From assembly GCA_016288795.1 (NCBI GenBank), contig JAEELI010000017.1, positions 85,856 to 149,855 on the forward strand: 64,000 nucleotides of DNA, written 5' to 3'. Below, piece by piece: positions 2,453 to 64,000 of the stretch. The position numbers and the translations under genes are program-made. This DNA comes from Bacillales bacterium (lineage in GTDB: Bacteria > Bacillota_I > Bacilli_A > RF39 > UBA660). How positions within the stretch are numbered: the first letter of the stretch is position 1; each line of letters begins with the position of its first letter. The notes beneath the pieces are model-generated. The model had not been told where the DNA came from, ran no database searches, and worked only from the letters and a program-made list of their open reading frames with translations.

Positions 2453-2798
2453 TATATTATTAAAATTATCTAAATCTAAATTTAGAAGTAGTTTTAAATT
2501 AAAAGATAAAGATATAGAGTATATAAAAGATAAAGGATTAAATGTTATAGAAAAACATGCTTATGATTTTATTAAATCAAGAATTGCTCCCGAAAATCCT
2601 CCCAATGATGGCAAGCAAACGCCCACAAAAGGCCATCCTGTATTTATATCTCAACATGCATGTGCTTGCTGTTGTAGAGAGTGTTTATATAAATGGCATC
2701 ATATACCTAAAAATAAAGAATTAAATTCTAAAGAAATTGATTACATAGTTAGAGTATTAATGACATGGATAAAAAAAGAATATAATAATCATTTATGA
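2436..2798 (+). CDS. small Cys-rich conserved hypothetical protein (possibly DUF4186-like)
   Basis: CACCCRECLYKWHHI cysteine cluster; overlaps upstream stop (coupled); family assignment from memory only. Confidence 0.3.
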   Translation: MNNIDNILLKLSKSKFRSSFKLKDKDIEYIKDKGLNVIEKHAYDFIKSRIAPENPPNDGKQTPTKGHPVFISQHACACCCRECLYKWHHIPKNKELNSKEIDYIVRVLMTWIKKEYNNHL

Positions 2799-2844
2799 TT
2801 TAAACAAAAAATGATATAATAAAAAAAGAATAGAAGGTGATAAG

Positions 2845-4356
2845 ATGGCTATAGAAAAATATATTAATGATACTTATGACATGGTTTTCGACCCAATCCC
2901 ATCTTATCCGGGTATTTGGACCTTTAAAGCTGAAAATTTAGCTAAGAATGCCATAAAACAAGATGGTAAAAATTTATTTCAAGAATACTATGCCAAATAC
3001 TATGCAGAATTAAATAAAACATTCAAATATTTGAGCATTTTAGAAAATGGTTTTATTAGTTCATCTAATTATTTTTTAGAATTTTTATCAAATAATAACA
3101 ATAATCGTATTGGTAGAAATCTTAATTTTAATAAAGTTAAGTTTTTTATGGCTTTAGAAGGTTTATTGAATGATGAAATAGATAGGCATGGAAAAACTAA
3201 TGAAGAACATAGAATGATGATAAGAAACTTAGCAGAACATCTAGACGATAATTATGAAGCATTAAACTCGTTCTATTCTGAGGCCATGCGTCATAAAAAA
3301 GAGATTATTAAAGATATATTAGATAATCAAATTCAATCTTCCTATTATGATGTAGCTTTGAAAGATTATGAGCAACACAATTTAAGTGTTGATTTTTCTC
3401 AATACATAAAAAAATTATATGATATCATAGATGATTTCCAAACTGGCTTATTAAAACTAGAAGATTATTTTGATAGAAACTTGGATGTTTCTGAATTATA
3501 CAAATGTTTTGATCCAGATAGATTTTATCTATTATTTGGAGTAATTATATATGAACATAATCTAGAATCGGAAAAAAGAAATAAAAAATTAGCTAATAAT
3601 TTTAATTATTTAAGAGAATATTTTCTGAAAGTTCAAGAAGTTTATAAAGAAGATAAAAGATATAATCCAACTGTTCTTTATGAATGGAAAGATGGCAAAA
3701 AAGAAAGAATAAGTCAAAGAGAATTAGAACGTAGATATTTAGAAATGAAACAAAGACATCCAGAAGAAAAAGAAGTGATTTTGCCAACTGTAGATAACAG
3801 TGATTATTATAAAAATATTGATTTAATAGAAAAAATAGAGAAAATATATGATGATGATATTAAAGTGAATTGGGAATTTTTACCAGCAGGAGAAGGTATT
3901 AAGAAAAGTGATAATAGAGAATCCTCAGTTCAAAGAGATAAAAAAGTAATAAGTGTAAATGATGTTAATTTAAGAATAGAAATAATGGAACATTCAGGAT
4001 TCATTGGCAAGCCAATTAAAGGTAAATCATCATTTTCTAATTATTATGCTTTTATTTATCCAAATGGAAAAGTAATACTAGAAAAGTTTTGGGAAAATGA
4101 AAATGAATTAATACCATCTGTTAACAATGCTACTTATGTAATGACAATAGATCATTTTATGGAAATGAGTAAGATGGCAAAAATAGATTTAATAGAATAT
4201 ATGAAAAAATTTCCAGATATGGGGATGAAAAGAATATTTCATACATCAATAGATAATTGGCAAAAGAATCTATATAAAGAAATAAATGGTAGTTATAGAA
4301 TAGATGATGCCATTAGTTTTATTAATAGTTTGAGGAGTGAGTCTTTAGATGATTAA
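2845..4356 (+). CDS. hypothetical protein, 503 aa, no recognisable domain
   Basis: long uninterrupted ORF with RBS-like GAAGGTG upstream; cytoplasmic (no signal/TM); no motif I can assign. Confidence 0.5.
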   Translation: MAIEKYINDTYDMVFDPIPSYPGIWTFKAENLAKNAIKQDGKNLFQEYYAKYYAELNKTFKYLSILENGFISSSNYFLEFLSNNNNNRIGRNLNFNKVKFFMALEGLLNDEIDRHGKTNEEHRMMIRNLAEHLDDNYEALNSFYSEAMRHKKEIIKDILDNQIQSSYYDVALKDYEQHNLSVDFSQYIKKLYDIIDDFQTGLLKLEDYFDRNLDVSELYKCFDPDRFYLLFGVIIYEHNLESEKRNKKLANNFNYLREYFLKVQEVYKEDKRYNPTVLYEWKDGKKERISQRELERRYLEMKQRHPEEKEVILPTVDNSDYYKNIDLIEKIEKIYDDDIKVNWEFLPAGEGIKKSDNRESSVQRDKKVISVNDVNLRIEIMEHSGFIGKPIKGKSSFSNYYAFIYPNGKVILEKFWENENELIPSVNNATYVMTIDHFMEMSKMAKIDLIEYMKKFPDMGMKRIFHTSIDNWQKNLYKEINGSYRIDDAISFINSLRSESLDD

Positions 4357-4898: not shown

Positions 4899-5627
4899 AT
4901 GTTTGTTGGAGAAGATCCAATTCATATTAATGCAGAAAAAGGAAGTATTGCTGAACTTGTTTTAATGCCAGGAGATCCTTTAAGAGCTAAATACATTGCT
5001 GAAAACTTCTTAACTGACGCTAAAGAAGTATGTAATTTAAGAAATATGTTAGGTTATACTGGAATTTATAAAGGAGTAAAAGTATCAGTTATTGGTTCAG
5101 GCATGGGAATGCCTAGTATGGGAATTTATTCTTGGGAACTATACCATTATTTCAATGTTAAAAAAATAATCAGAATAGGAACTTGTGGAGTAGTTAGTCC
5201 TGAAGTTAATGTTCCAGAATTAATACTTGCTGAAAAAGCCTATAGCGAATCTAACTTCGCTTGGACTTTTGATAATTATGAAGGTCATATTACATATCCA
5301 TCTAAAGAATTAAATGATATTATTTATGCGAAAAGTAAAGAACTAGGTCTTAAGATACATGTTGGAGATGTAACAACAATGGATGTTTTTGGACCATATA
5401 TAGATTATGATAGAGTTCTAGATAGAATGCCTAAAGACTTAAAAGTTATTGGGGAAGAAATGGAAGCATATGGTTTGTTTCATATAGCTAAACATTTCAA
5501 TCGTGAAGCATCATGTATTTTAACTGCAGTTGATTCTAAATTTAGTGATGTAGTTCTAAGTGGTGAAGAAAGACAAAGTAGTTTAAATGATATGATTACT
5601 TTAGCTTTAGAATCTATTATACAATAA
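4899..5627 (+). CDS. deoD: purine nucleoside phosphorylase, DeoD type
   Basis: PNP family-1 signature region GSGMGMPSMGIY, length 242 aa, GGAG RBS. Confidence 0.8.
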   Translation: MFVGEDPIHINAEKGSIAELVLMPGDPLRAKYIAENFLTDAKEVCNLRNMLGYTGIYKGVKVSVIGSGMGMPSMGIYSWELYHYFNVKKIIRIGTCGVVSPEVNVPELILAEKAYSESNFAWTFDNYEGHITYPSKELNDIIYAKSKELGLKIHVGDVTTMDVFGPYIDYDRVLDRMPKDLKVIGEEMEAYGLFHIAKHFNREASCILTAVDSKFSDVVLSGEERQSSLNDMITLALESIIQ

Positions 5628-5985
5628 ACTTATGACGATTCGGTAAGTTAAGAGAGATAAAGAATTCTTTAGTCTCTCTTTTTAAATGACCAATTTTACC
5701 AATTAATTCACTATCTAAAGGCTTTCGATAATGATTTATCTCCAAGAAAAGCAATTGCCACTCTAGATATAAATCATAATTAATTTGTTCTATTTTATGT
5801 AAAAGTTTATGACTAGTTCTGGATAGAATAGCGCCATTATCTACAGATTCAATGCCCCCATTTCTTTTTTCTAATATATGATGATAGGAAACATAATTCT
5901 TTTGAGTAATTTTATATCCCATCCAATCAGTTTTAGGATTTCCATATATCCTCAACATATCTTCCATAATTTGTCTATTTTTCAT
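5617..5985 (-). CDS. small HNH endonuclease-family protein
   Basis: YHHI...NGG...N...L.RTSHKLLH arrangement resembles HNH nuclease core (His-Asn-His). Confidence 0.5.
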   Translation of the reverse strand: MKNRQIMEDMLRIYGNPKTDWMGYKITQKNYVSYHHILEKRNGGIESVDNGAILSRTSHKLLHKIEQINYDLYLEWQLLFLEINHYRKPLDSELIGKIGHLKRETKEFFISLNLPNRHKFIV

Positions 5986-7499: not shown

Positions 7500-7730
7500 A
7501 ATTTTTAAGGCGGAACAAGACAAGTAAATTAAAATAGTTTTAAGAGAGTTAGTGATTGGTGAAAACTAATAAATGATGTTTAATTTATATCACTTGGGAG
7601 CTAATTATTTGAAATATAGTAAAATAATTCGTTGATGGCGTTAACATATAGAGATGAATAATTCATGAATTAAGGTGGTACCACGGGTTTACTCGTCCTT
7701 AAGTTATGAATTTTTTTAATTTTTAGAAGG
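7500..7730 (+). promoter_or_regulatory. T-box riboswitch leader of ileS
   Basis: Stem I element AGAGAGTTAGTGATTGGTGAAAACTAATAAATG; T-box sequence AATTAAGGTGGTACCACGG at ~7669-7687 followed by U-rich terminator. Confidence 0.75.
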
Positions 7731-7737
7731 GTGATTT

Positions 7738-10700
7738 ATGAAAAATTTTGAAAGTCTAGATGGAAGAGAAGTTCATTTAGTAGAAAAAGACATTCGCGAA
7801 AGATGGCAAAAAGAAAATATATTAGATAAATGTATTGAGAACCGAAAAGATAATGATAATTGGGTGTTTTATGATGGACCAATTTATGCTAATGCAGCTC
7901 CAGGTATCCACCACGTATTTGCTAAAACAATTAAAGATGCTTTTTGTAAATATAAAACAATGCAAGGATATCGTGTTTTAAGAAAGATTGGGTTGGATAC
8001 CCACGGATTACCAATTGAAGTTAATGTAGAAAAGAAATTAGGTTTTACAAGTAAGGCTGATATTGAAAAATTTGGAGTAGAGAACTTTTGTAAAGAATGT
8101 AATAAAGCAACAGCAATCAATATTGGAGAAATAAATAAAGTTACTGATATGATGGGCCAATTCATTGATTGTGATAATCCTTATGTAACATGCTCAAATG
8201 ATTATATAGAATCTGAATGGTGGATTATTAATGAATTAAATAAAAAAGGATTAATATACCATGGCTCTAAGGTTTTACCTTATTGTCCTCGTTGTGGAAC
8301 TGAACTTTCTTCAAATGAAGTAGCTCAAGGTTATGAAAGTGTTTCTGTAAATACTGTCATAGTGCCATTTAAATTAGTAAATGAAGATACTTATGTACTT
8401 GTTTGGACAACTACACCTTGGACATTAATGGCAAATGTGGCACTTTGCGTTAATCCAAGTTTAGAATATTTAAAAGTTCAATCAATGGGCTATAACTTCA
8501 TTGTTGGAGCATCTCTAGCTAATTCTGTTTTAGGAGATGAATATGAAGTTTTAGATAAATATAAAGGCAAAGACTTAGTAGGATTAAAATATGAACAATT
8601 ATTACCTTTTGTTAAAGTAGAAGGAAAATCTTTTGAAATAGTTGCTGATAATTATGTTACAGATTCTGATGGAACAGGTATTGTTCACATAGCTCCTGCA
8701 TATGGTGAAGATGACAATCGTGTTTGTCGTGAAAATGATATTACTTTTATAAATCCAGTTGGAAAAGATGGAAAATATAATGAAGGTCCTTGGAAGGGTA
8801 GAGTTGTTACATCTTCAGAGTTAGAATTAGATATTATTAAATATTTAAAAGAAAATGATAAATTATTCAAAAAGATTAAAATGACTCATGATTATCCACA
8901 TTGTTGGCGTTGTAAAGAACCATTAATTTATTATGCTAAACCAGCTTGGTATGTAAAAAATACTAAATTAAAAGAAGAAATAATAAAAGAAAACAATAAA
9001 ATTAATTGGTTCCCAGCATATGTTGGTGAAAAACGTTTTGGTAACTGGTTGGATAACATGATTGATTGGAGCATTTCTCGTAATCGTTACTGGGGATGTC
9101 CACTTCCTATTTGGACTTGTGAATGTGGAAACTTTGAATCAATTGGTTCATTAGACGAATTACAAGAAAGACTAATTGAAGATATAGATGTTAGAAAAAT
9201 AGAATTACATAGACCTTATGTAGATGATTTACATATAAAGTGTTCTAAATGTGGAAAAACAATGGAAAGAGTTAAAGATGTTATGGACGTTTGGTTTGAC
9301 TCAGGGGCAATGCCATATGCTCAATTCCATTATCCATTTGAAAATAAAGAGTTATTTGAAAGTCAATTTCCTGCAGATTTCATTGCCGAGGGAATAGATC
9401 AAACTAGAGGATGGTTCTATGTTTTACTAGTAATATCTACACTATTAAGTGGTAAGTCTTCATTTAAAAATGTTGTTGTTAATGATATGATGCTAGATAA
9501 AAATGGCAAGAAAATGAGCAAATCACTTGGTAACATTGTTAATCCAGTGGATATTATGACTAAATATGGAGCAGATGAAGTTAGATTCTATTTAATGTAT
9601 GCCAGCCCTGTATGGACACCATTAAAGTTTGATGAAGAAGGCATAAAAGAAGTTCATTCTAAATTCTTTAATCCATTTAAAAACACTTATAATTTCTTCA
9701 GCATGTATGCCACTACTGATAATATTGATATTAAAGATTGTCAAATTGCAGTTAAAGATAGGGAAGAAATTGATAAATGGTTATTATCAAGATACAATTC
9801 TTTATTAAAGAATGTTTACAATAGTTATGAAGAATACGATCTAAATAAAGTAGTTAAATATGTAACAAACTTTGTATCCGATGATTTATCTAATTGGTAT
9901 ATTAGAAGATGCCGTAATCGTTTCTGGGGAAGTGAATTGAATAATTCTAAAAAATCAGTTTATATAACTACTTATGAAGTTTTAGTAGGATTATCAAAGA
10001 TAATCGCTCCAATAACTCCATACATTTCTGAAGAAATATATACAAAACTAACTAAAGAATATTCTGTTCATACTTCAAATTTTCCTAAATTTGATGAGAA
10101 ATTGATAGATTTAAAACTAGAAGAAAAAATGGATTATGTTAGAAATTTAATTTCTATGGGAAGAATGGTTAGAGAAGAATCTAAAATTAAAGTTAGAACT
10201 CCATTAAGTGAAGCAATTATAGATAAAAATATCTATGATAAAATATCTGATTTAATACCATTAATAGAAGAAGAATTAAATGTTAAAAAGTTAGTTAAAG
10301 AAGATAATCTATCTAGGTATATGAATATGACTATTAAACCAAACTACAAAGTAGTTGGGCGTATATTCGGTTCTAAATTAAAAGAATATGAAGAATTCTT
10401 AAGTTCTTCAGATATAGATGAATTAAATAAAGAAAATGTAGTATTCAACGGAACTACTATAACTAAAGATATGTTTGAAGTTAAAATATCTTCTAAAGAA
10501 GGATTTAATGTTGGAGTTTTAAATAATCTATTTATAGTTTTAAATACTAATTTAACTGAAGATTTAATAAATGAAGGTCATGCTAGGGAATTCGTTTCTA
10601 AGATTCAAAACATGCGAAAAGAAAATTCATTTGAGATTAGTGATAGAATAAATATTTATTATAGTAGTTTAGAATTTAAACCAATAGTTGATCATTTTGG

Positions 10701-10815
10701 AGATTATATTAAAAAAGAAACTTTAGCAATTAATATAGTTGAAAAAGATAACTTAAAAAATGAATTATCTGTTAATGGCATAAAAGTCCTAGTAGATATT
10801 GAAAAAGCAAAATAA
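7738..10815 (+). CDS. ileS: isoleucyl-tRNA synthetase
   Basis: HIGH-type motif (PGIHHVFAKT), KMSKS motif, 1025 aa, zinc-finger Cys clusters. Confidence 0.92.
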   Translation: MKNFESLDGREVHLVEKDIRERWQKENILDKCIENRKDNDNWVFYDGPIYANAAPGIHHVFAKTIKDAFCKYKTMQGYRVLRKIGLDTHGLPIEVNVEKKLGFTSKADIEKFGVENFCKECNKATAINIGEINKVTDMMGQFIDCDNPYVTCSNDYIESEWWIINELNKKGLIYHGSKVLPYCPRCGTELSSNEVAQGYESVSVNTVIVPFKLVNEDTYVLVWTTTPWTLMANVALCVNPSLEYLKVQSMGYNFIVGASLANSVLGDEYEVLDKYKGKDLVGLKYEQLLPFVKVEGKSFEIVADNYVTDSDGTGIVHIAPAYGEDDNRVCRENDITFINPVGKDGKYNEGPWKGRVVTSSELELDIIKYLKENDKLFKKIKMTHDYPHCWRCKEPLIYYAKPAWYVKNTKLKEEIIKENNKINWFPAYVGEKRFGNWLDNMIDWSISRNRYWGCPLPIWTCECGNFESIGSLDELQERLIEDIDVRKIELHRPYVDDLHIKCSKCGKTMERVKDVMDVWFDSGAMPYAQFHYPFENKELFESQFPADFIAEGIDQTRGWFYVLLVISTLLSGKSSFKNVVVNDMMLDKNGKKMSKSLGNIVNPVDIMTKYGADEVRFYLMYASPVWTPLKFDEEGIKEVHSKFFNPFKNTYNFFSMYATTDNIDIKDCQIAVKDREEIDKWLLSRYNSLLKNVYNSYEEYDLNKVVKYVTNFVSDDLSNWYIRRCRNRFWGSELNNSKKSVYITTYEVLVGLSKIIAPITPYISEEIYTKLTKEYSVHTSNFPKFDEKLIDLKLEEKMDYVRNLISMGRMVREESKIKVRTPLSEAIIDKNIYDKISDLIPLIEEELNVKKLVKEDNLSRYMNMTIKPNYKVVGRIFGSKLKEYEEFLSSSDIDELNKENVVFNGTTITKDMFEVKISSKEGFNVGVLNNLFIVLNTNLTEDLINEGHAREFVSKIQNMRKENSFEISDRINIYYSSLEFKPIVDHFGDYIKKETLAINIVEKDNLKNELSVNGIKVLVDIEKAK

Positions 10816-16727: not shown

Positions 16728-16982
16728 ATGAATGGATTACATATTAAGGGAACATTGAAAAGTTTTTTATATGATTTAAATAATTTCATAACTATATATG
16801 ATAATTATTTATATGTATTTAATTATCAAAGTTTAAATAAACTGAGTTCTAAAAAGATAGAACTAGATTTTAGTAATTGGAAAATAGTAATATATGGCGA
16901 AGATTTAAATATAAGACAAATGACTAAACAGGAATTGCTACTACAAGGGACTATATTGAAAGTCGAGTTTAATTATGAATAA
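16728..16982 (+). CDS. YqfC-like sporulation protein (84 aa)
   Basis: size and position upstream of yqfD-like gene as in Bacillus yqfC-yqfD. Confidence 0.4.
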   Translation: MNGLHIKGTLKSFLYDLNNFITIYDNYLYVFNYQSLNKLSSKKIELDFSNWKIVIYGEDLNIRQMTKQELLLQGTILKVEFNYE

Positions 16983-18126
16983 TAACTTAGTTAGAGTAAA
17001 GATAAGAACTAGTAACTATTATAAATTGTTATTAAAAATATCTAAAATGGATATATCAATTTTAGATATTGATAGATATAATAATTATGTAATCATTAAG
17101 ATAACCATTAGTGATTACGAAAAAATAAAAAATGTTTTACAAAACTACAATATAGAAATATATGATGTATTAGGAATTATAAAAATTAAAAATACTATTT
17201 TTAAACATTTAGTATTTTTTATATCTTGTCTTTTAGCTATTAGCTTATTATTCATCGCAAATAATATGATTTTTAAAATCAATATTATTTGCTCTAATGA
17301 AGAAATAAAAGAAATTATTCTTGAGGACTTAAATAGGTTCAATTTAAGTCCAATGCATTTCAAAAAAAGGCATAAAGAAATAGAGGGCATAGTTAAAGAA
17401 ATAACCAAAAAGAATAAAAACCTTATAGAATTTTTGGAAATAGCATATGATGGTCTAATTATGAATGTAGTAGTTCAGGAAAGGATGAACTATATTAGCA
17501 ATAAAGAACATCCCTTTTGTGATATTGTAGCAAAAAAAGAGGCTAAAATAGTAGGAATTAATATTCAAAAAGGAGAAATGTTAAAAACCATTAATGATTA
17601 TGTTTATAAAGGAGAAACTATAATAAGTGGTACAATAAAACATAATGATGAAATAAAAAATACAGTATGTGCCCAAGGGACTATTTATGGAGAAGTATGG
17701 TCTAAAGTAATTATTAATTATCCATTAGAAGAAGAAAGTATTATATATACAGGTAAGAAAAGATATAATATTGAAATAAAAAGCAATAATGATGAATATA
17801 TGGTTTTTAAAAGCAGGGTAAAGTTTCCCAAAAAAGAAAAAGAAAGAATCTATACATATAATAATTTTGAAATAAATTTAGTTAAAGAAGTTGAAACAAA
17901 GAAAATAATGAAAAAACTTAGCGAAAAAGAAGCTTTAAATAAAGCATTAACTAGGGCATTACAAGCAATTAAAATTAAATTAAATTCAAATGAAGAAATA
18001 AAATATCAAAAAGTTTTGAAAAAAGAGATAAATGATAGTAAAATATACTTAGAAGTGTTTGTGATCACAAAAGAAATAATAGGGGAAGTAAAAATACTTG
18101 AGGAGGTAGCTGGTAGTGGTATCTAA
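16975..18126 (+). CDS. YqfD-like (stage IV sporulation-type) membrane protein
   Basis: 383 aa with single TM near residue 80-95, overlaps upstream stop, synteny. Confidence 0.45.
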   Translation: MNNNLVRVKIRTSNYYKLLLKISKMDISILDIDRYNNYVIIKITISDYEKIKNVLQNYNIEIYDVLGIIKIKNTIFKHLVFFISCLLAISLLFIANNMIFKINIICSNEEIKEIILEDLNRFNLSPMHFKKRHKEIEGIVKEITKKNKNLIEFLEIAYDGLIMNVVVQERMNYISNKEHPFCDIVAKKEAKIVGINIQKGEMLKTINDYVYKGETIISGTIKHNDEIKNTVCAQGTIYGEVWSKVIINYPLEEESIIYTGKKRYNIEIKSNNDEYMVFKSRVKFPKKEKERIYTYNNFEINLVKEVETKKIMKKLSEKEALNKALTRALQAIKIKLNSNEEIKYQKVLKKEINDSKIYLEVFVITKEIIGEVKILEEVAGSGI

Positions 18127-27773: not shown

Positions 27774-27850
27774 GTTCTTGTAGCTTAGTTGGATAAAGCG
27801 GATGCCTCCGACGCATCAGATTGAGGGTTCAAATCCCTCCAAGAACACCA
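27774..27850 (+). tRNA. tRNA-Arg (anticodon CCG), CCA encoded
   Basis: cloverleaf folded by hand: acceptor GTTCTTG/CAAGAAC, D-stem GCTT/AAGC, anticodon stem GATGC/GCATC with loop CTCCGAC, T-arm GAGGG-TTCAAAT-CCCTC. Confidence 0.85.
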
Positions 27851-52183: not shown

Positions 52184-52438
52184 AAAATATCTCCTTTCCA
52201 TTAAATTACAAAATTATTTAGTTTTTATCTTAAAGATATCATAGGGAGTTTCAATTAATTTCACTTAGGCAGTCTAAGTTACTTTATTATTTAAGAAACA
52301 CATTATAATTCTTTAAAATAACTGCCAAATCAAATTGCATAATTATTATACTATATTTCTTCGTAATGTCAAATAGAACCTTATTTTAAACTTGTCAAAA
52401 AATATAAGATATGGTATATTATATATGCACTTGGAAAT

Positions 52439-52515
52439 GGCGCTGTAGCTCAGCTGGCTAGAGCATCCGGTTCATACCCGGCAGGTCGAGAGTTCGAATC
52501 TCCCCGGCGCTACCA
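52439..52515 (+). tRNA. tRNA-Met (anticodon CAT), elongator type, CCA encoded
   Basis: hand fold: D-arm GCTC-AGCTGGCTA-GAGC, anticodon loop TTCATAC, T-loop TTCGAAT, G1:U72 so not initiator; Ile2-lysidine tRNA not excluded. Confidence 0.8.
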
Positions 52516-52526
52516 TTTTATAATTA

Positions 52527-52552
52527 AAGTTCTATTTATAGAACTTTTTTTA
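52527..52552 (+). terminator. terminator after tRNA-Met
   Basis: AAAGTTCTATTTATAGAACTTTTTTT hairpin + U-tract. Confidence 0.6.
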
Positions 52553-56197: not shown

Positions 56198-56294
56198 ACA
56201 AAGTATTTAATACTTTGTTTTTTTATACCGATGTGTATTGATTCTCGAGTGTGTATATGGTATGCTTTAAATAGTAGGGTAATGGGTAATAAAT

Positions 56295-58328
56295 ATGAAT
56301 CCAATGATAAAAAAAATTGCTATATATTTATTAACTCTAGCAGGTATATTAATGGTATTTATAATGCCCATGACATATGCCTATTTTAGTGTGCAAACAA
56401 ATAATAATTCATCGTCATTTTTAATTCAAAGTAGTATAGAAGAAATTCGGCCTGATATAACAATCAATATAAATGGAACAGTAAACAAATCAGCTAATTA
56501 TACAAGAAGTATAAGTTGTTCAACAGGAGCAACCCCATATTGGAATAGAAAATGGGATAGTTTAGTATTTAGTAATGTTGCAGATGAAGAAGAGGAATGT
56601 GGCTTAACTTATACTCAGGATACTAGTAATCATAGTAGTGCACTACTTTCTACAGTAGTTCAAAACAATGCTGCAGATAATACTAATCTCTTTTTATTAG
56701 ATTATTCTAATTCTGTTGACAAGACATCTCTTTTAGGGAATGTTCAACAATTTGATAGTTCTAGTAATATTGATACTCCATCAACATCAGGTATAGGTTC
56801 AATATCAGTATGGAGTTTAAATGCAAATAATGAATATCAGGCAAATCCAAGTGCAATGACATATAGTGGGAATAGATATTACCATATATACGCAACAGTT
56901 TCGGAAAATGGGTATTATCGAGTGTGCTATACAATTTCAACTGGAACATCCTCCACTAGTAATGGTATACACATAGGCGTTAACTCAACAAGAAAAAGCG
57001 TTGAGTATGCATCACAGTCACAAAGCGTATCGAATTGCGCTGATATAGGCGGTCTATCTATTTATGATAACATAAACATATCTGTATATAGAAAATCTGG
57101 TACAACCATGCCTACATTTTCTTTTAAAATATATAAATATTCTGGAACAACAAATAAAACAAGTAATTTGAATTCTACGCAATTTCATAATTCGACTTCG
57201 ACAGCTACGAGCGGAACATCATTATCTATATGGAGTTTGAACGCTAATAATGAATATCAATCAGATCCTAGCGCAATGACATATAATGGATCGAGATTTT
57301 ACCATATATATGCTCAAGTTCCAGAATTAGGCTACTACCAAGTGTGCTACACTATTAATTCTGGAACTGGAAGCACTAACAACAAATTGATGATAACATT
57401 GAATGATGTATCTAAAACTTCTATAAATTCATCTCAAAGTGACACAGTGACCGGGTGCTTTTATTTGGGATTGCTGGACACAACAGATTATGTCAATATT
57501 TCCCAATATAGATATAGTTCATATACATCTCCAGTAATGACATGGAAATTGGAAGAAGCATCCCAAACCACAAGTATTAATGCTGGATACCATTATTATG
57601 GTTCAAATCCAAACAATTATATATGGTTTAATAATGAAATGTGGAGAATTATAGGGCTGGTCCCAACATGCACAAGTTCAAATTGTGGAACTTCAGCAAA
57701 TCTTGTTAAGATTATAAGGAAATATCCGCTTTCATCTTTATTGGCCTATGATGCAAAGAGTTCGGGGAATAGCAGCACCTGGGGGGATAATACTTTGTAT
57801 TCTTTACTTAATGATTATTATTATGGAAAGCAAAATGCAATTTCTACTGACTATTGTAAGATTTTAACAAATAATACCCATAAGAATTGTGACTTTAGTG
57901 AAATAGGAATTAATCCTCAAGATTATTATGGAAGTATGGTAGAGAATGCTTACTGGAATACAGGTCCGGCAAATTTAGATAATATTGTGTCATATTCGGT
58001 TCAATTAGAAAGAGAAAAACAAACAGTTTCTGGACATGTTGGATTAGCAAGTGCTAGTGACTGTGAATTAACTAAAGCAAATTATAAAAGAGTGATAAAT
58101 GGAACATTGCCGAATGAAGAATATGCAAATTTTTGGATGGCTGCGGGATATACATTAAACCCTCAATCATACATAGGACATAATAGCGTTACTACATGTT
58201 CTGAAAGCGTTAGTTCCATTAATTCCAATAATGATGGTTCAATTTTTCCAGTAGTTTATTTATCACCAAATGTGTATGTAGTTAGCGGAACAGGAACAGA
58301 AGCAAATCCATATATAATAGCCAAATAA
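56295..58328 (+). CDS. secreted/anchored Ser-Thr-Asn-rich Cys-containing protein, paralog A (677 aa), unknown repeat domain x2 + conserved C-terminal domain
   Basis: N-terminal hydrophobic segment ending TYAYFS (TasA/CalY SipW-type-like); internal ~120-aa duplication; shared C-terminus with next gene. Confidence 0.6.
   Translation: MNPMIKKIAIYLLTLAGILMVFIMPMTYAYFSVQTNNNSSSFLIQSSIEEIRPDITININGTVNKSANYTRSISCSTGATPYWNRKWDSLVFSNVADEEEECGLTYTQDTSNHSSALLSTVVQNNAADNTNLFLLDYSNSVDKTSLLGNVQQFDSSSNIDTPSTSGIGSISVWSLNANNEYQANPSAMTYSGNRYYHIYATVSENGYYRVCYTISTGTSSTSNGIHIGVNSTRKSVEYASQSQSVSNCADIGGLSIYDNINISVYRKSGTTMPTFSFKIYKYSGTTNKTSNLNSTQFHNSTSTATSGTSLSIWSLNANNEYQSDPSAMTYNGSRFYHIYAQVPELGYYQVCYTINSGTGSTNNKLMITLNDVSKTSINSSQSDTVTGCFYLGLLDTTDYVNISQYRYSSYTSPVMTWKLEEASQTTSINAGYHYYGSNPNNYIWFNNEMWRIIGLVPTCTSSNCGTSANLVKIIRKYPLSSLLAYDAKSSGNSSTWGDNTLYSLLNDYYYGKQNAISTDYCKILTNNTHKNCDFSEIGINPQDYYGSMVENAYWNTGPANLDNIVSYSVQLEREKQTVSGHVGLASASDCELTKANYKRVINGTLPNEEYANFWMAAGYTLNPQSYIGHNSVTTCSESVSSINSNNDGSIFPVVYLSPNVYVVSGTGTEANPYIIAK
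56785..57150 (+). repeat. internal repeat unit 1 of paralog A (WSLNANNEY...YYRVCYTI...)
   Basis: direct comparison of translation; repeated again at 57210-57560 and in paralog B 58780-59135. Confidence 0.6.
57210..57560 (+). repeat. internal repeat unit 2 of paralog A
   Basis: SIWSLNANNEYQSDPSAMTYNGSRFYHIYAQV...YYQVCYTINSGTGST aligns with unit 1. Confidence 0.6.
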
Positions 58329-58347
58329 AAAAGAAAGGAGGAACTCA

Positions 58348-59904
58348 ATGAAAAAGAAATATATATTATTAATTGTAATAGGAATAATATTAACAACATC
58401 TTTATTAATTGTTTTAGTAAGCAAAAATAAATCAAAAAAGTTTGTGCAAGATGGAGTTATGTTTGCAGTAAAAGTAGACGGAGTTCCTCAGGATCATTTT
58501 CCAAATGATGGAAAAAAATACTATGTAGATATAGAATGCGAAAATGCAAGAGGTCAATGGAAGAGAATGCCTGATTCAAATGGTAACAATGATAATTTTA
58601 AAATATCAATAGATAATATAACTGGGGATGTAGAATGTAATGTTGATTTTCAATCAATTAATTTAAATGATAGCGAAGATGAACATTTGCTAAGCAATAT
58701 AATAAAAAATGGTGTAAATGAAGACATTAGTCCCTATAATTCAACTCAATACGATTATAGTGATGCCTATGCAACACCGGAGACTTCAGGAATAGGGAAT
58801 ATAGAAGCATGGAGTCTGAATGCGAATAATGAATATGAATCAGATCCAAGTTTGATGACATACGGAAGTAGATATTATCATCTATATACAACTATTTCTA
58901 TTCAGGGATCATATAGAATTTGTTATACAATCAAGAGTGGAACTAGCACAACTTCTAATAGATTATATGTATTTGTAAATGGAACCAGAGTTGTAAATCG
59001 TCAATCCTCAACTTCAACTGAAATATCTTCGTGTACCAATTTGGGATATCTCGTTGAAGGCTCTGATATTAACATATCTGCATATAAATATAGTGGAACA
59101 TTTCCGGTTATTTCGTTGCGTCTTGAGAAAGTAAATATTGCATATGAAGAGACAGGAGGATATCGATATCAGGGACTCAATCCAAATAACTATATATGGT
59201 TTAATAATGATAAGTGGAGGATTATAGGACTAATTCCAACATGCACATCGTCTGGATGCGCAACATCAAACAATTTAGTTAAAATAATTAAAGTGGATTC
59301 TTCTAAACGAATAGCATATGATGCACATCCTTATAGTAGTTCAAGTGCTGTATGGGGAAGTAATACATTATATTCTTTACTAAATAGTTATTATTGGGGA
59401 AAATTGGATGGAACTAATACTTCATATTGCAGTAATAGCGCAGAACAAAAACCAACCTCATGTGATTTTACCGCTACTGGAATATTACCAAGTGATGACT
59501 ACGGAAGCATGGTAGAAAATGTGTTCTGGAACACTGGAAATGCCGCATCATCTACGGGAAACACTGCAGCTACTTTTTTTGAAAGCGAATCTCAAAAACA
59601 GGATGTTCAAGGACGCGTTGGATTTATAAATTCTAGCGACTTTATATATGCATCTCCTAATTATTCAATTACTAGTGGTCACTCTGAAGATAATTGGATG
59701 TTTATGAATAAAGGGATTCCAACAGTATCTACACGTAGCGATAGACAATTTATAATGGTTTCAGGAAGCAATACTGTTGGTTATAACAATGCTGACTCAT
59801 CTGTTTTGGTTATACCAGTAGTTTACCTATCACCAAATGTTTATGTAGTTGGTGGCAATGGAACCGAGGCTACTCCATACCAAATTGCAAAATATTCTAG
59901 TTAG
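58348..59904 (+). CDS. secreted/anchored Cys-containing protein, paralog B (518 aa), one repeat unit + conserved C-terminal domain
   Basis: signal-anchor MKKKYILLIVIGIILTTSLLIVLV; AWSLNANNEYESDPSLMTYGSRYYHLYTTI...YRICYTIKSGTSTT; C-terminus ...PVVYLSPNVYVVGGNGTEATPYQIAK nearly identical to paralog A. Confidence 0.6.
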   Translation: MKKKYILLIVIGIILTTSLLIVLVSKNKSKKFVQDGVMFAVKVDGVPQDHFPNDGKKYYVDIECENARGQWKRMPDSNGNNDNFKISIDNITGDVECNVDFQSINLNDSEDEHLLSNIIKNGVNEDISPYNSTQYDYSDAYATPETSGIGNIEAWSLNANNEYESDPSLMTYGSRYYHLYTTISIQGSYRICYTIKSGTSTTSNRLYVFVNGTRVVNRQSSTSTEISSCTNLGYLVEGSDINISAYKYSGTFPVISLRLEKVNIAYEETGGYRYQGLNPNNYIWFNNDKWRIIGLIPTCTSSGCATSNNLVKIIKVDSSKRIAYDAHPYSSSSAVWGSNTLYSLLNSYYWGKLDGTNTSYCSNSAEQKPTSCDFTATGILPSDDYGSMVENVFWNTGNAASSTGNTAATFFESESQKQDVQGRVGFINSSDFIYASPNYSITSGHSEDNWMFMNKGIPTVSTRSDRQFIMVSGSNTVGYNNADSSVLVIPVVYLSPNVYVVGGNGTEATPYQIAKYSS

Positions 59905-61726: not shown

Positions 61727-62542
61727 ATGAATAATAATAGTTATATAATTACAGATAATATCTTAAATAAAATATCTAGTATTATGAAAAGCTTAGGATC
61801 AATAAGCAATAGTTTTTATGAAGTAAATGTAAATAAAAACTTAAACTATCTATTTAAAATGGAAGGTATAAAAGATGAAGATTTTATATCCAAGTATACT
61901 CAGGTATATAATGATTTAGATAACATAAATATTAATGATTTCTTTTCTAAATTAAAATATCGTGAGTGTAATTTAAAAGATACTTTTACTCACCCAAGAG
62001 TAGAATTAATTCCTAATTTATTTTCTAATTTAAATACCTTCATTAATCACACTGGTGACACTCATCCATTTTTGATGGCATCATTATTCTACTATGGGTT
62101 TATTTTTATTAGTCCATTTGAAGATAACAATCACATAGTAGCAATGGTATGGTTAAATAAATATTTGAGAGATTATAATGAAGCATTTAAATATTTGTCT
62201 TTAGAGTCTTACATATATAAATATAAGGTTGAGTACTATGAGTCATTAAAAAGTGATAAGACATTTATCGATTTTTTATTAAAGATAATTGACTTAGCAT
62301 TAAAAGATTTATTATCTCATCCTATATATATAGAAGATAAGTTTTTGAAAGTTGATAAATTATTAAAGGTTATGGAAAAGAACAAACCAATGACTGCATA
62401 TGAGATAATGAATAAATTAAATATTAAATCTAAAGAAACTTTTAGAAATTCATATTTAAATTATGCCATAGAAGAAAAATTAGTTAATTTAACAGTTCCA
62501 GATAAACCAACTAGTAGGAATCAAATGTATTATAAAGTATAA
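61727..62542 (+). CDS. Fic/Doc-family-like protein with degenerate active-site motif and C-terminal winged-helix
   Basis: HPFLMAS...SPFEDNNHIVAM in place of canonical HPFx[DE]GNGRxxR; C-terminal KPMTAYEIMNKLNIKSKETFRNSYL wHTH-like. Confidence 0.45.
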   Translation: MNNNSYIITDNILNKISSIMKSLGSISNSFYEVNVNKNLNYLFKMEGIKDEDFISKYTQVYNDLDNININDFFSKLKYRECNLKDTFTHPRVELIPNLFSNLNTFINHTGDTHPFLMASLFYYGFIFISPFEDNNHIVAMVWLNKYLRDYNEAFKYLSLESYIYKYKVEYYESLKSDKTFIDFLLKIIDLALKDLLSHPIYIEDKFLKVDKLLKVMEKNKPMTAYEIMNKLNIKSKETFRNSYLNYAIEEKLVNLTVPDKPTSRNQMYYKV

Positions 62543-62817: not shown

Positions 62818-63531
62818 GTGAAGAAAAAAATTATTCTTATAAGTTTAGCTTTACTATTAGCAATGATTGAAATTCTAGTTATACCTATAGGTTCAAAAGA
62901 CATTGTCTTATTAGACACGGTAGTGGCGGAATCTAAAAAAGAAAATGAACTAGGATATGAAGTCAAAGCCGCCAAGGAAAAATATAAAAATGATGATATA
63001 GTTGGTTTATTAGAAATACCTAATACCACTTATAGAACTTTAGTCCCGCAGGGAGATAATAATACATTTTATTTATCTAGAGGATTAGATAAAAAGAAGA
63101 ATAAAATAGGAACTCCATTTTTAGATTATAGAGTCGACTTGGACTCATCTAAAAAGTTATTAATATATGGACATAATTCTAGATATACAGAAATGCCTTT
63201 TCAAATATTAGAAGAATATTATGATGAGTCTTACTTGAAAGAACATCGATATATAATTTTAAAAACAGAAAGCAAAACAAATATATATGAAGTATTCTCG
63301 GTCTTCATTGAAACTAAAGATTGGACTTATACCAATATAAAATTTAAAGACGATGATGATTGGTTAGAGCATATCAATAAGCTTAAAGAAAAATCAATTC
63401 ATAAAACTGATATTGAGCTTAATAAGGATGATGAAATTTTAGTTCTGCAGACGTGCTCGACGAAAAAAGAATATTTAAAATTTAAAAAGAAATTTTTATT
63501 AGTTATAGCAAGGAAGGTTGATAATATATGA
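62818..63531 (+). CDS. srtB: class B sortase
   Basis: GTG start; signal anchor; catalytic motifs LLIYGHN (His) and ILVLQTCS (TLxTC Cys) typical of SrtB. Confidence 0.65.
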   Translation: MKKKIILISLALLLAMIEILVIPIGSKDIVLLDTVVAESKKENELGYEVKAAKEKYKNDDIVGLLEIPNTTYRTLVPQGDNNTFYLSRGLDKKKNKIGTPFLDYRVDLDSSKKLLIYGHNSRYTEMPFQILEEYYDESYLKEHRYIILKTESKTNIYEVFSVFIETKDWTYTNIKFKDDDDWLEHINKLKEKSIHKTDIELNKDDEILVLQTCSTKKEYLKFKKKFLLVIARKVDNI

Positions 63532-64000
63532 AAAAGATATTAACTAACATAGTGTTGTTTTTATTAATGTCATTTGTATTTATTCCAAACATTCATGCTG
63601 AAATAAATGTTGATAATGTCAACAATGTAGAAGCAGTTGAAGAAATAGTTACAAGTGATGACTTAATAAATACAGAAGAGGAAATTATTGAGGAAGAAGA
63701 GGAAGAAAAAGAGACAGCTGAAGATGAAGCTGTAGAAGAGTTAACAGACACTGTTTCTGAACAAGCAAATCAAACCGCTGAAACAGAAGAAGTTGGAACG
63801 ACAACTGAAACTGAAGAACCAGTTATGACATTAGCAGCATCTGATAATGCTTCTAGTAATGATGAAGGAAGCGGAAATAATAATTATAATGTTAAATTTT
63901 GGACAAATGATAATAAGCATTATATTGCAGGTGTTGAAAGTGTTAGTCTTTCAACATTAAACGAAAAATTATCTTTGAATATTAATTTAAATAATATTAC
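63528..64000 (+). CDS. secreted acidic protein (Glu/Thr-rich), 3'-truncated at window edge; possible sortase substrate
   Basis: ATGA overlap with sortase stop; signal peptide MKKILTNIVLFLLMSFVFIPNIHA; EEEEEKETAEDE acidic tract. Confidence 0.5.
   Translation, partial: MKKILTNIVLFLLMSFVFIPNIHAEINVDNVNNVEAVEEIVTSDDLINTEEEIIEEEEEEKETAEDEAVEELTDTVSEQANQTAETEEVGTTTETEEPVMTLAASDNASSNDEGSGNNNYNVKFWTNDNKHYIAGVESVSLSTLNEKLSLNINLNNI

Follow-up and report, generated by a model that had tools for sequence, protein, structure and literature searches.

The question raised by this locus is what two adjacent genes, here called A and B, encode, and whether their base composition marks them as foreign to the genome that carries them. 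They lie in a window of 64,000 nucleotides (the whole stretch of DNA analysed), and their host would be an uncultured-type, low-GC (27%), spore-forming gut member of the Bacillota, in which A and B are predicted to form a co-transcribed, paralogous cell-surface pair. We consider it on balance probable that the two products are surface proteins which bind a ligand and are either anchored by the N-terminus or secreted, and that they are non-diversified members of a family which serves elsewhere as the target of diversity-generating retroelements (DGRs).

Domains of the gene pair

The features of the pair, all on the + strand and with a gap of 19 nt between the two ORFs, are as follows.

56198..56294, + strand: intergenic region upstream of A, read from the sequence as an AT-rich hairpin and then a T-run (aaagtatttaatactttgttttttt), directly after the stop codon of an ABC-transporter gene
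56295..58328, + strand: gene A, 677 aa; begins with a hydrophobic helix that ends TYAYF, followed by a small beta domain with two Cys, a pair of jelly-roll modules and a DUF6273-like C-terminal domain (from the ORF, the AF2 model and paralogy to B)
56736..57143, + strand: module 1 of A, aa 148-283, modelled as a jelly-roll beta-sandwich (alignment A2); strands 173-281, pLDDT 65-80
57162..57566, + strand: module 2 of A, aa 290-424, modelled as a jelly-roll beta-sandwich (alignment A2); strands 313-421, pLDDT ~90
57582..58325, + strand: C-terminal DUF6273-like (C-type-lectin-like) domain of A, aa 430-677; pLDDT >90
58348..59904, + strand: gene B, 518 aa; begins with a TM anchor, followed by a small beta domain with two Cys, a single jelly-roll module and a DUF6273-like C-terminal domain (from the ORF and the AF2 model)
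58438..58656, + strand: small N-proximal beta domain of B, aa 31-103, with Cys64 and Cys97; homologous to A aa ~58-110; pLDDT ~90-95
58735..59136, + strand: module of B, aa 130-263, modelled as a jelly-roll beta-sandwich
59149..59892, + strand: C-terminal DUF6273-like (C-type-lectin-like) domain of B, aa 268-515

A and B are paralogues. In BLASTP, residues 284-677 of A match 122-515 of B at 46% identity across 401 aa (E 7e-100); residues 64-281 of A also align to 53-261 of B (38%, E 3e-35). A preliminary description, made from the letters of this DNA, had pointed out a shared C-terminal domain of ~250 aa and a module of ~120 aa, of which A has two copies and B one, and both are confirmed: the C-terminal domains are 50% identical to one another, and the three copies of the module are 48-51% identical over ~135 aa (71-78% at the DNA level), with 48 invariant columns in alignment A2 which include WSLNANNEY, CYTI and NIS.Y. 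The AF2 model of A (mcddecd477f35) has a mean pLDDT of 78, rising to ~90 in the C-terminal domain and module 2, while that of B (me5ed5b9c7629) has a mean pLDDT of 88.4 and a pTM of 0.77. The conserved cysteines, also remarked upon earlier, fall in pairs within each domain: 75/102, 211/248, 351/388, 459/464 and 521/532 in A, together with 590 and 635, and 64/97, 192/229, 299/304 and 361/372 in B, where C361 and C372 are ≥90% conserved across the family. The small N-proximal beta domain is found in most family members of ~375 aa. The position of the hairpin and T-run between the ABC-transporter gene and A points to a separate transcription unit for the pair, whose two genes would be co-transcribed; a scan for terminators of the consensus type missed this hairpin, the stem of which is AT-rich.

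Direct scans with full-length A and B gave no significant Pfam or NCBIfam match, and DUF6273 (PF19789; gathering score 23.5 bits) did not match either protein in Pfam at E up to 1. The same model recognizes individually only 3 of 63 family members (best E 1.1e-10). The connection is made through P0071, a protein retrieved with B as the query (E 1.2e-8 among 5.8e9 sequences searched): B 272-513 aligns to its residues 271-503 (E 4e-13) and 550-782 (E 2e-14), and PF19789 covers residues 309-485 (42.1 bits). In a second relative, P0067, PF19789 covers residues 384-563 with a score under the cutoff (19.2 bits). The models of the A and B C-terminal domains share their fold with the solved DUF6273 domain (9qa6), a link which is structural only, because the profile of the C-terminal domain (A3) finds nothing significant among PDB sequences. 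Since A and B are under the Pfam threshold as well, the placement is transitive and structural, and on the models we regard the domain as a divergent DUF6273 with a C-type-lectin-like fold. Its family-invariant residues, in the numbering of A, are G436, N441, R451-G454, W496, W554, S588 and D589.

DUF6273 is the N-terminal domain (residues 31-322) of the Thomasclavelia ramosa IgA protease (PDB 9qa6), in which it is dispensable for catalysis (PMC12402451). Identity to A and B in the structural alignment is only 15%. In the protease the domain is N-terminal on a sortase-anchored M64 peptidase, whereas in A and B it is C-terminal on a small protein with a predicted N-terminal anchor, and is preceded by a conserved extension (YRY.G.NPNNYIWFN...WRIIG) that sets it apart from the protease.

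The repeated module matches no curated family (Pfam, NCBIfam), and its profile (A2) found nothing significant among PDB sequences, the best E being 0.22, to BclA. At the level of the modelled fold it is a jelly roll of the CBM/C1q type. It resembles CBM51, CBM32, CBM35, CBM61, MAM and C1q/TNF-like domains, including the C-terminal domain of Bacillus anthracis BclA, without significant sequence similarity to them, and the CBM and C1q types are alike at this level. Profile matches in giant repeat proteins (P0080, P0082 and others) were rejected as homologues; they cover only ~30-50 profile positions around a G-Y-Y-x-V-x-Y-T-I hairpin and are motif-level or compositional. The additional modules carried by A and B are rare and private to the family, and may serve as spacers, as a second binding site or for oligomerisation. 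The earlier statement that these domains could be placed in no family thus holds for the module and not for the C-terminal domain.

Base composition, anchoring and processing

The DNA of the pair had been described as notably GC-richer than its flanks, and horizontal acquisition had been proposed. The G+C content is indeed raised (A 0.324, B 0.327, window 0.270). The excess is in codon position 2 (0.43 in A, 0.41 in B) and reflects the abundance of Ser, Thr, Asn and Gly in the proteins, Ser alone accounting for 13-14.5% of residues vs 6% elsewhere. Amino-acid composition alone predicts values of 0.305 (A) and 0.309 (B) and so accounts for about two-thirds of the excess, leaving a residual of +0.02 (z 2.1 and 1.9). 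With an excess that is mostly amino-acid composition, a residual of ~2 SD and no flanking mobility genes, the case for horizontal transfer is weak at best.

It is accordingly unlikely, in our estimation, that the pair is a recently acquired island. The residual, together with the synonymous-codon log-likelihood (z -2.6 for A, -2.2 for B), does place both genes among the four ORFs, out of 52, that deviate most, two other ORFs in the window being equally or more atypical; a tRNA gene lies 3.8 kb upstream; and the neighbourhood of the pair differs between genomes, a check of 82 related loci having shown no synteny to the window flanks beyond generic ABC-ATPase similarity. Set against these points, GC3 (0.21 and 0.19; z 2.1 for A and 1.5 for B) is within the window range of 0.08-0.225, the borders carry no integrase, transposase, direct repeat or phage gene, and the flanks consist of housekeeping or ordinary genes, with ABC-transporter genes between the tRNA and the pair. 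The family is, moreover, endemic to this bacterial group, and deviations of such size are common in weakly expressed surface genes. The preliminary description had named average codon usage, together with clear homology to a characterised family, as what would speak against its reading; this was borne out only by half, the C-terminal domain having been traced to DUF6273, a named but uncharacterised family.

The two proteins begin differently.

56295..56393, + strand: N-terminus of A, residues 1-33; n-region KK, hydrophobic core of ~19 aa, then T-Y-A|Y-F-S (read from the sequence; helix 3-36 in the model)
58348..58422, + strand: N-terminus of B, residues 1-25; KKK, then a hydrophobic helix of 20 aa lacking an obvious cleavage site (modelled as helix 2-25)

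The N-terminus of A, which carries ...MPMTYAYFSV as first described and continues with NNNSSSF after TYAYFS, may be either a signal peptide, possibly cleaved after TYA, or a signal anchor; that of B is probably an uncleaved signal anchor. A hydrophobic helix with the motif [ST][YF]A[YLFI][FW] is present in 24 of 121 family ORFs, and the plain TM anchor of the B type in 68. Because Lys-rich sequence flanks the TM helix of B on both sides, its orientation is taken from the homology to DGR targets and from the cysteine pairs, by which A and B would be extracytoplasmic. A regular-expression scan detected no LPXTG-type sorting signal in A (ending ...NPYIIAK) or B (ending ...PYQIAKYSS), and both were rejected as sortase substrates. 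The window does hold a sortase gene at 62818-63531; its likely substrate starts at ~63540.

The end of the hydrophobic segment of A had also been likened to the TasA/CalY class of SipW-cognate signals. The N-terminus of A resembles those of the class, which combine a hydrophobic helix, an aromatic-Ala-aromatic-aromatic motif (TYAYF in A) and an Asn/Ser-rich stretch. The comparison goes no further: neither full-length A nor its first 65 residues gave a hit with the NCBIfam TasA and SipW-cognate signal models at E up to 10, Pfam found no Peptidase_M73 (camelysin) match in A, and A contains no TasA or camelysin domain. The absence of sipW from the window, noted earlier, was borne out by the lack of any signal-peptidase-I motif, and it extends further: motif (not HMM) searches of the window, translated in six frames, and of every ORF at the 82 related loci turned up no S26/SipW catalytic motif, and there was no sipW within 6-10 kb of any of ~120 family members. 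The link to TasA/CalY and SipW is, on the sequence, a resemblance only.

We give little credence to A (perhaps with B) being a TasA/CalY-like or pilin-like fibre subunit assembled by donor-strand exchange, with its SipW-type peptidase encoded elsewhere. What speaks for such a fibre, besides the N-terminus of A and the 24 relatives of the helix-plus-[ST]YA[YL][FW] type, comes from two family members. One of the 24, L080, matches the TasA model from the signal peptide through the first strand, at E 7.8e-5 and 22 bits, far short of the 450-bit cutoff. The distant member P0067 starts with a genuine type IV prepilin N-terminus, and the gene after it is also prepilin-like, so that in some relatives the head domain sits on N-termini of the fibre type. 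Apart from the failure of the signal models and the missing peptidase motif, it is countered by the plain TM anchor of B and most of the family, and by models that show globular beta domains without a TasA-like fold match. The prepilin motif (G|F-T-L-x-E; PF07963) is absent from A and B by Pfam and motif search, and from the window by motif search; regular expressions for the catalytic motifs of prepilin peptidase found none in the window or the 82 loci. Among the possibilities raised in the preliminary description, that of a lectin or adhesin is made plausible by the C-type-lectin-like fold and the CBM/C1q jelly roll.

Relatives associated with diversity-generating retroelements

The family comprises at least 459 stretches, confined to MAGs of uncultured gut Bacilli/'Tenericutes' in lineages from human, chicken, rabbit and mouse, and its members usually come as an adjacent pair. 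It is cellular and not phage-borne; a scan of IMG/VR gave one marginal match of 25 residues, and one of JGI metagenomes with B gave no relatives. In ~20 of 80 loci a complete DGR, made up of a MutS-I-like (MSL) protein, a bAvd-like protein, an RT and a TR, is located between the two paralogues, and both C-termini are mutagenised. The variable region (VR) lies ~26 residues before the C-terminus, its mismatches are adenine-specific, and every TR-matched VR has a G+C content of 0.48-0.69. DGRs with MSL and avd have been termed 'architecture D' (PMC5758913), and C-type-lectin-fold variable proteins of DGRs include the DUF6273 'tentaclins' and target2 proteins (PMC10743442). The named systems nearest to the targets in the relatives are Mtd of the Bordetella phage and Treponema TvpA, likewise C-type-lectin-fold variable proteins. 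A limited literature search found no description of a DGR cassette sandwiched by two paralogous targets.

The corresponding segments of A and B are the following.

58155..58250, + strand: segment of A, homologue of the variable region that DGRs rewrite in relatives, aa ~621-652, ending ...FPVVYL; positional homology to VR1/VR2 of locus L021; no VR signature
59722..59817, + strand: segment of B, homologue of the variable region that DGRs rewrite in relatives, aa ~459-490, ...NTVGYNNADSSVLVIP; no VR signature

Here A and B depart from the variable proteins of DGRs, the window being without RT, Avd, MSL, TR or GC-rich VR. The VR-equivalents have G+C contents of 0.32 in A, equal to the gene average, and 0.35 in B (gene average 0.33), vs 0.48-0.69 in true VRs, and where the family conserves 'VRP', A reads 'IFP' and B 'VIP'. 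Searched against the window by tblastn, the RT of the relatives had no match and their Avd, MSL and C4 proteins gave only noise; no TR-like copy of the 3' segments of A or B occurs in the window outside the two genes. A DGR within the window was rejected on these grounds, and the best reading is that, on the evidence of the 64 kb, the pair belongs to a DGR-target family without being diversified itself.

Diversification in trans, by a DGR elsewhere in the genome acting on the C-terminal segments as on the remote targets of other DGR systems, strikes us as improbable. The homologues are bona fide targets, the view is limited to 64 kb of the genome, many members without a local TR keep GC-rich VR-equivalents (0.48-0.64), as remote targeting within the family would produce, and locus L045 has DGR-linked and DGR-less pairs side by side. 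It is the flat G+C content of the VR-equivalents in A and B, the loss of 'VRP' from both and the lack of RT, Avd and TR in the window that tell against it.

A proposed role for the pair

As non-diversified surface proteins, A and B would be mounted as follows. B would be held in the membrane by its uncleaved signal anchor, while the hydrophobic helix of A, ending TYA|YF, may be cleaved, so holding A at the cell or releasing it. Outward from the membrane there would follow the small, disulfide-type beta domain, one (B) or two (A) jelly-roll modules and the C-terminal DUF6273 domain, a predicted ligand-binding head of adhesin- or lectin-like character. The ancestral unit of the family is probably an adjacent pair of ~450 aa and ~377 aa; in about a quarter of the sampled loci the DGR between the two genes rewrites ~30 residues near both C-termini, and A and B would be fixed-sequence copies that gained jelly-roll modules instead.

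A bolder version, which we rate as speculative and unlikely in its entirety, would make A/B the 'frozen' descendant of a two-component surface receptor which DGRs diversify and which is specific to gut Bacilli that are uncultured and have reduced genomes. The two proteins would form a hetero-oligomer with BclA/C1q-like trimerising spacers, A being released or processed at TYA|YF, and would attach to a ligand of the host, the diet or a partner cell. The wider family would then constitute an undescribed programmable adhesin system, with a DGR between two paralogous targets on three mounts (TM anchor, TasA-like signal and type IV prepilin).

Taken alone, the A/B locus encodes two surface proteins, uncharacterised but now placed among the DUF6273/C-type-lectin-fold proteins. 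It is an entry point to a large unnamed family, which in uncultured gut Bacilli/'Tenericutes' appears to be the chief surface receptor diversified by DGRs. In this family diversified pairs occur alongside fixed ones, sometimes at one locus, which offers a natural comparison for what the hypervariable heads bind, and through it DUF6273, a domain with no known ligand, gains a testable context.

Gene pair, domain structure and relatives

The two genes lie on the forward strand exactly where the preliminary description had placed them, with 19 nt between them:

56295–58328, +, gene A, ORF of 677 aa
58348–59904, +, gene B, ORF of 518 aa

Co-transcription is the best-supported reading, because an AT-rich hairpin with a T-run lies upstream of A and the gap between the genes is short. 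BLASTP aligned A 284–677 with B 122–515 (46% identity, 401 residues, E 7e-100) and, in a second alignment, A 64–281 with B 53–261 (38%, E 3e-35), which indicates an additional internal copy of a module in A. The paralogous segments are 71–78% identical at the DNA level and are not repeated elsewhere in the window. The three copies of the module, two in A and one in B, share 48–51% identity over about 135 residues; the paralogy and shared module originally observed are real, beyond chance.

Neither protein matched Pfam or NCBIfam. The AlphaFold2 model of B, built with good confidence on a 63-sequence alignment (mean pLDDT 88.4), contains:

aa 2–25, transmembrane helix
aa 31–103, small beta domain
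aa about 130–262, beta-sandwich (the module)
aa 270–515, alpha/beta domain

For A (mean pLDDT 78) the modelled plan is that of B, except that there are two beta-sandwich modules. Each domain has one pair of cysteines. That the proteins are extracytoplasmic and lectin-like, with an uncurated module, had been proposed correctly, but the C-terminal domain then considered unplaceable is a DUF6273-like (C-type-lectin-fold) head. Among 1.84 billion cluster representatives, a profile of the three module copies matched 83 proteins (E up to 1e-3). About 40 carry the full-length module, followed in 32 by a DUF6273-like domain, and the N-termini of these 32 are of the kinds seen in the A/B family; the remaining matches are multi-stretch and partial, on a short hairpin motif of giant repeat proteins. 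These results make the module a rare accessory domain that is exclusive to this family; its fold is an ordinary jelly roll.

A scan of GTDB, one genome per species, confirmed at least 459 stretches encoding the family. The best 79 loci are nearly all from metagenome-assembled genomes (MAGs) labelled uncultured Bacilli, Tenericutes or Mycoplasma, from guts of humans (Hadza, Brazilian), chicken, rabbit and mouse; a few carry the labels Muribaculaceae, Clostridia or Agathobacter, which may reflect binning errors. Among 121 family ORFs from 80 loci, 68 begin with a plain transmembrane or signal helix, 24 with an A-like helix ending in [ST][YF]A[YLFI][FW] and two (the same protein) with a genuine type IV prepilin motif, 27 being partial or unclassifiable. 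This prepilin-type protein, P0067 (694–2442 in loci L001/L047; MNKKGFTLIELL; PF07963, 2e-7), shows that the DUF6273-like head is pilin-mounted in some gut MAGs; a second prepilin-type gene (MSRGFTLVELL) follows at 2531–3553.

Of the 80 loci, 34 contain two or more members, typically one of about 450 aa with one of about 377 aa after it; B corresponds to the 377-aa type with a single module added, and A to the upstream type with two added. Pairing also seems to apply to the closest relatives (P0002 with P0006, P0003 with P0005), as judged solely from matching contig sizes (52,649 and 42,961). In P0006, at 648 aa the closest relative of the A type, there is a single module instead of two, and a Cys-rich C-terminal tail of about 130 aa (...YCNYGDGRRTCQVVNGVPSCRNNM) comes after the DUF6273-like domain, so that module number and tails differ between close relatives.

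Diversity-generating retroelements in the family

When every ORF up to 6 kb away from a family member was clustered, the commonest neighbour, in 20 of 80 loci, was a reverse transcriptase (RT; RVT_1, 8e-19), preceded by bAvd-like (1e-6) and MutS-domain-I-like (MSL; 4e-3) ORFs. After the RT comes C4, a conserved ORF of 90 aa. This cassette sits between the two paralogous targets. A complete diversity-generating retroelement (DGR) targeting both paralogues was found in L021 (1–6000) and in L008, L011, L013, L015, L019, L028, L032, L034, L040, L044, L045, L048, L050 and L068. The features of L021 are:

1535–1628, variable region (VR), near the 3' end of the first paralogue, matching the TR
3712–3805, template repeat (TR), directly after the RT
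5172–5265, VR, near the 3' end of the second paralogue, matching the TR

Eighteen of its 24 TR/VR mismatches fall at TR adenines, the TR encoding ...NSSNSNNVFNLNNNGNLNNNNANNGYSVSP and the VRs ...YSSSSSNVFYLNGDGYLSGSIASGGSSVRP. Its two VRs are 100% identical to each other and the 3' halves of the genes 91–95% identical, pointing to a recent gene conversion or duplication.

The combination of MSL and avd is known as "architecture D" of DGRs (PMC5758913), and the cassettes beside the relatives of A and B have this content. Since the family is essentially absent from IMG/VR, its DGRs are cellular. A local TR is present for 31 of 112 full-length ORFs, and TR-matched VRs have a GC content of 48–69% in genes of about 30–36%. 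GC-rich VR-equivalents (0.52–0.64) with no TR in the fetched locus occur in many family ORFs, at L003, L014, L016, L017, L035, L058, L059, L061 and others; these ORFs are candidate targets of remote (trans) DGRs. In L045 (7688–15311) a pair without a DGR (VR-equivalent GC 0.34 and 0.33) comes immediately after a pair linked to one (VR GC 0.55 and 0.48), so that fixed and diversified copies coexist in one genome.

The window contains no homologue of RT, Avd, MSL or C4 and no TR-like copy. The VR-homologous segments have the GC content of their genes:

58155–58250, +, in A, GC 0.32
59722–59817, +, in B, GC 0.35

The VRP otherwise conserved in the family is IFP in A and VIP in B, and about one third of the family resembles the pair in its DGR-less features. 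A DGR elsewhere in the genome, outside these 64 kb, acting on A and B is conceivable but improbable; the missing components, flat GC and lost VRP make non-diversified members of a DGR-target family the best reading within the window.

Composition, anchoring and neighbouring genes

The GC-richness from which horizontal acquisition had been proposed is numerically true (A 0.324, B 0.327, window 0.270). The excess lies mainly at codon position 2 (0.43 and 0.41), because Ser, Thr, Asn and Gly are abundant in the proteins; amino-acid composition alone, with the window's own synonymous-codon frequencies, predicts 0.305 and 0.309, leaving a residual of +0.02 (z about 2). GC3 (z 2.1 for A, 1.5 for B) and synonymous-choice log-likelihood (z -2.6 and -2.2) are equalled or exceeded in deviation by ORF 5617–5985 and the sortase ORF 62818–63531, the latter deviating more in codon usage than any other ORF of the window (z -3.2). 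No mobility genes surround the pair, which is flanked by a two-gene ABC exporter, a DUF362 gene, a lipoprotein, a Fic gene and the sortase. The compositional evidence for horizontal acquisition is therefore weak.

The TYAYF motif behind the suggested TasA/SipW link is real and recurs within the family, but A, though alike in this motif, matches no TasA/SipW-signal-type model, and B carries a plain anchor. In a distant member, L080, the signal peptide and first strand matched the TasA model weakly (E 7.8e-5; 22 bits, where the cutoff is 450 bits). As had been stated for sipW, no S26-type peptidase motif occurs in the window, nor in any of 82 related loci, and machinery for the proposed pilin- or TasA-type fibre was not found. 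The likeness of A to TasA is a resemblance; at most it hints at cleavage of A after TYA, with B remaining anchored.

Neither protein contains LPXTG. The sortase (+ strand; Pfam Sortase 3e-10, VLQTC motif) is directly followed by an acidic, Glu-rich ORF (+) running from about 63540 past the window end at 64000, with a classical signal peptide (MKKILTNIVLFLLMSFVFIPNIHA|EINV...); this secreted protein is probably its substrate. Between the lipoprotein gene and the sortase is the Fic/DOC-family ORF (61727–62542), whose C-terminal domain is Fic-like. Elsewhere in the window are a T-box leader (7504–7703) upstream of an ileS-like ORF (7738–10815) and tRNA genes at 27774–27847 and 52439–52512, the second accounting for a sharp GC peak (0.59) at about 52396–52545. 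A YqfD (stage IV sporulation) ORF (16975–18126; Pfam, 5.6e-48), polC- and dnaE-like ORFs and the 27% GC point to a spore-forming low-GC Bacillota as host.

The putative surface pair and its family

A and B are best interpreted as surface proteins, co-transcribed as a pair, that are secreted or anchored by their N-termini and carry DUF6273 heads, putatively ligand-binding. They belong to a family of gut Bacilli which DGRs target in related genomes, with no diversification visible here. The family pattern is of more interest than this locus: a DGR between paired targets, three alternative kinds of N-terminal mount, and fixed and diversified pairs that coexist.
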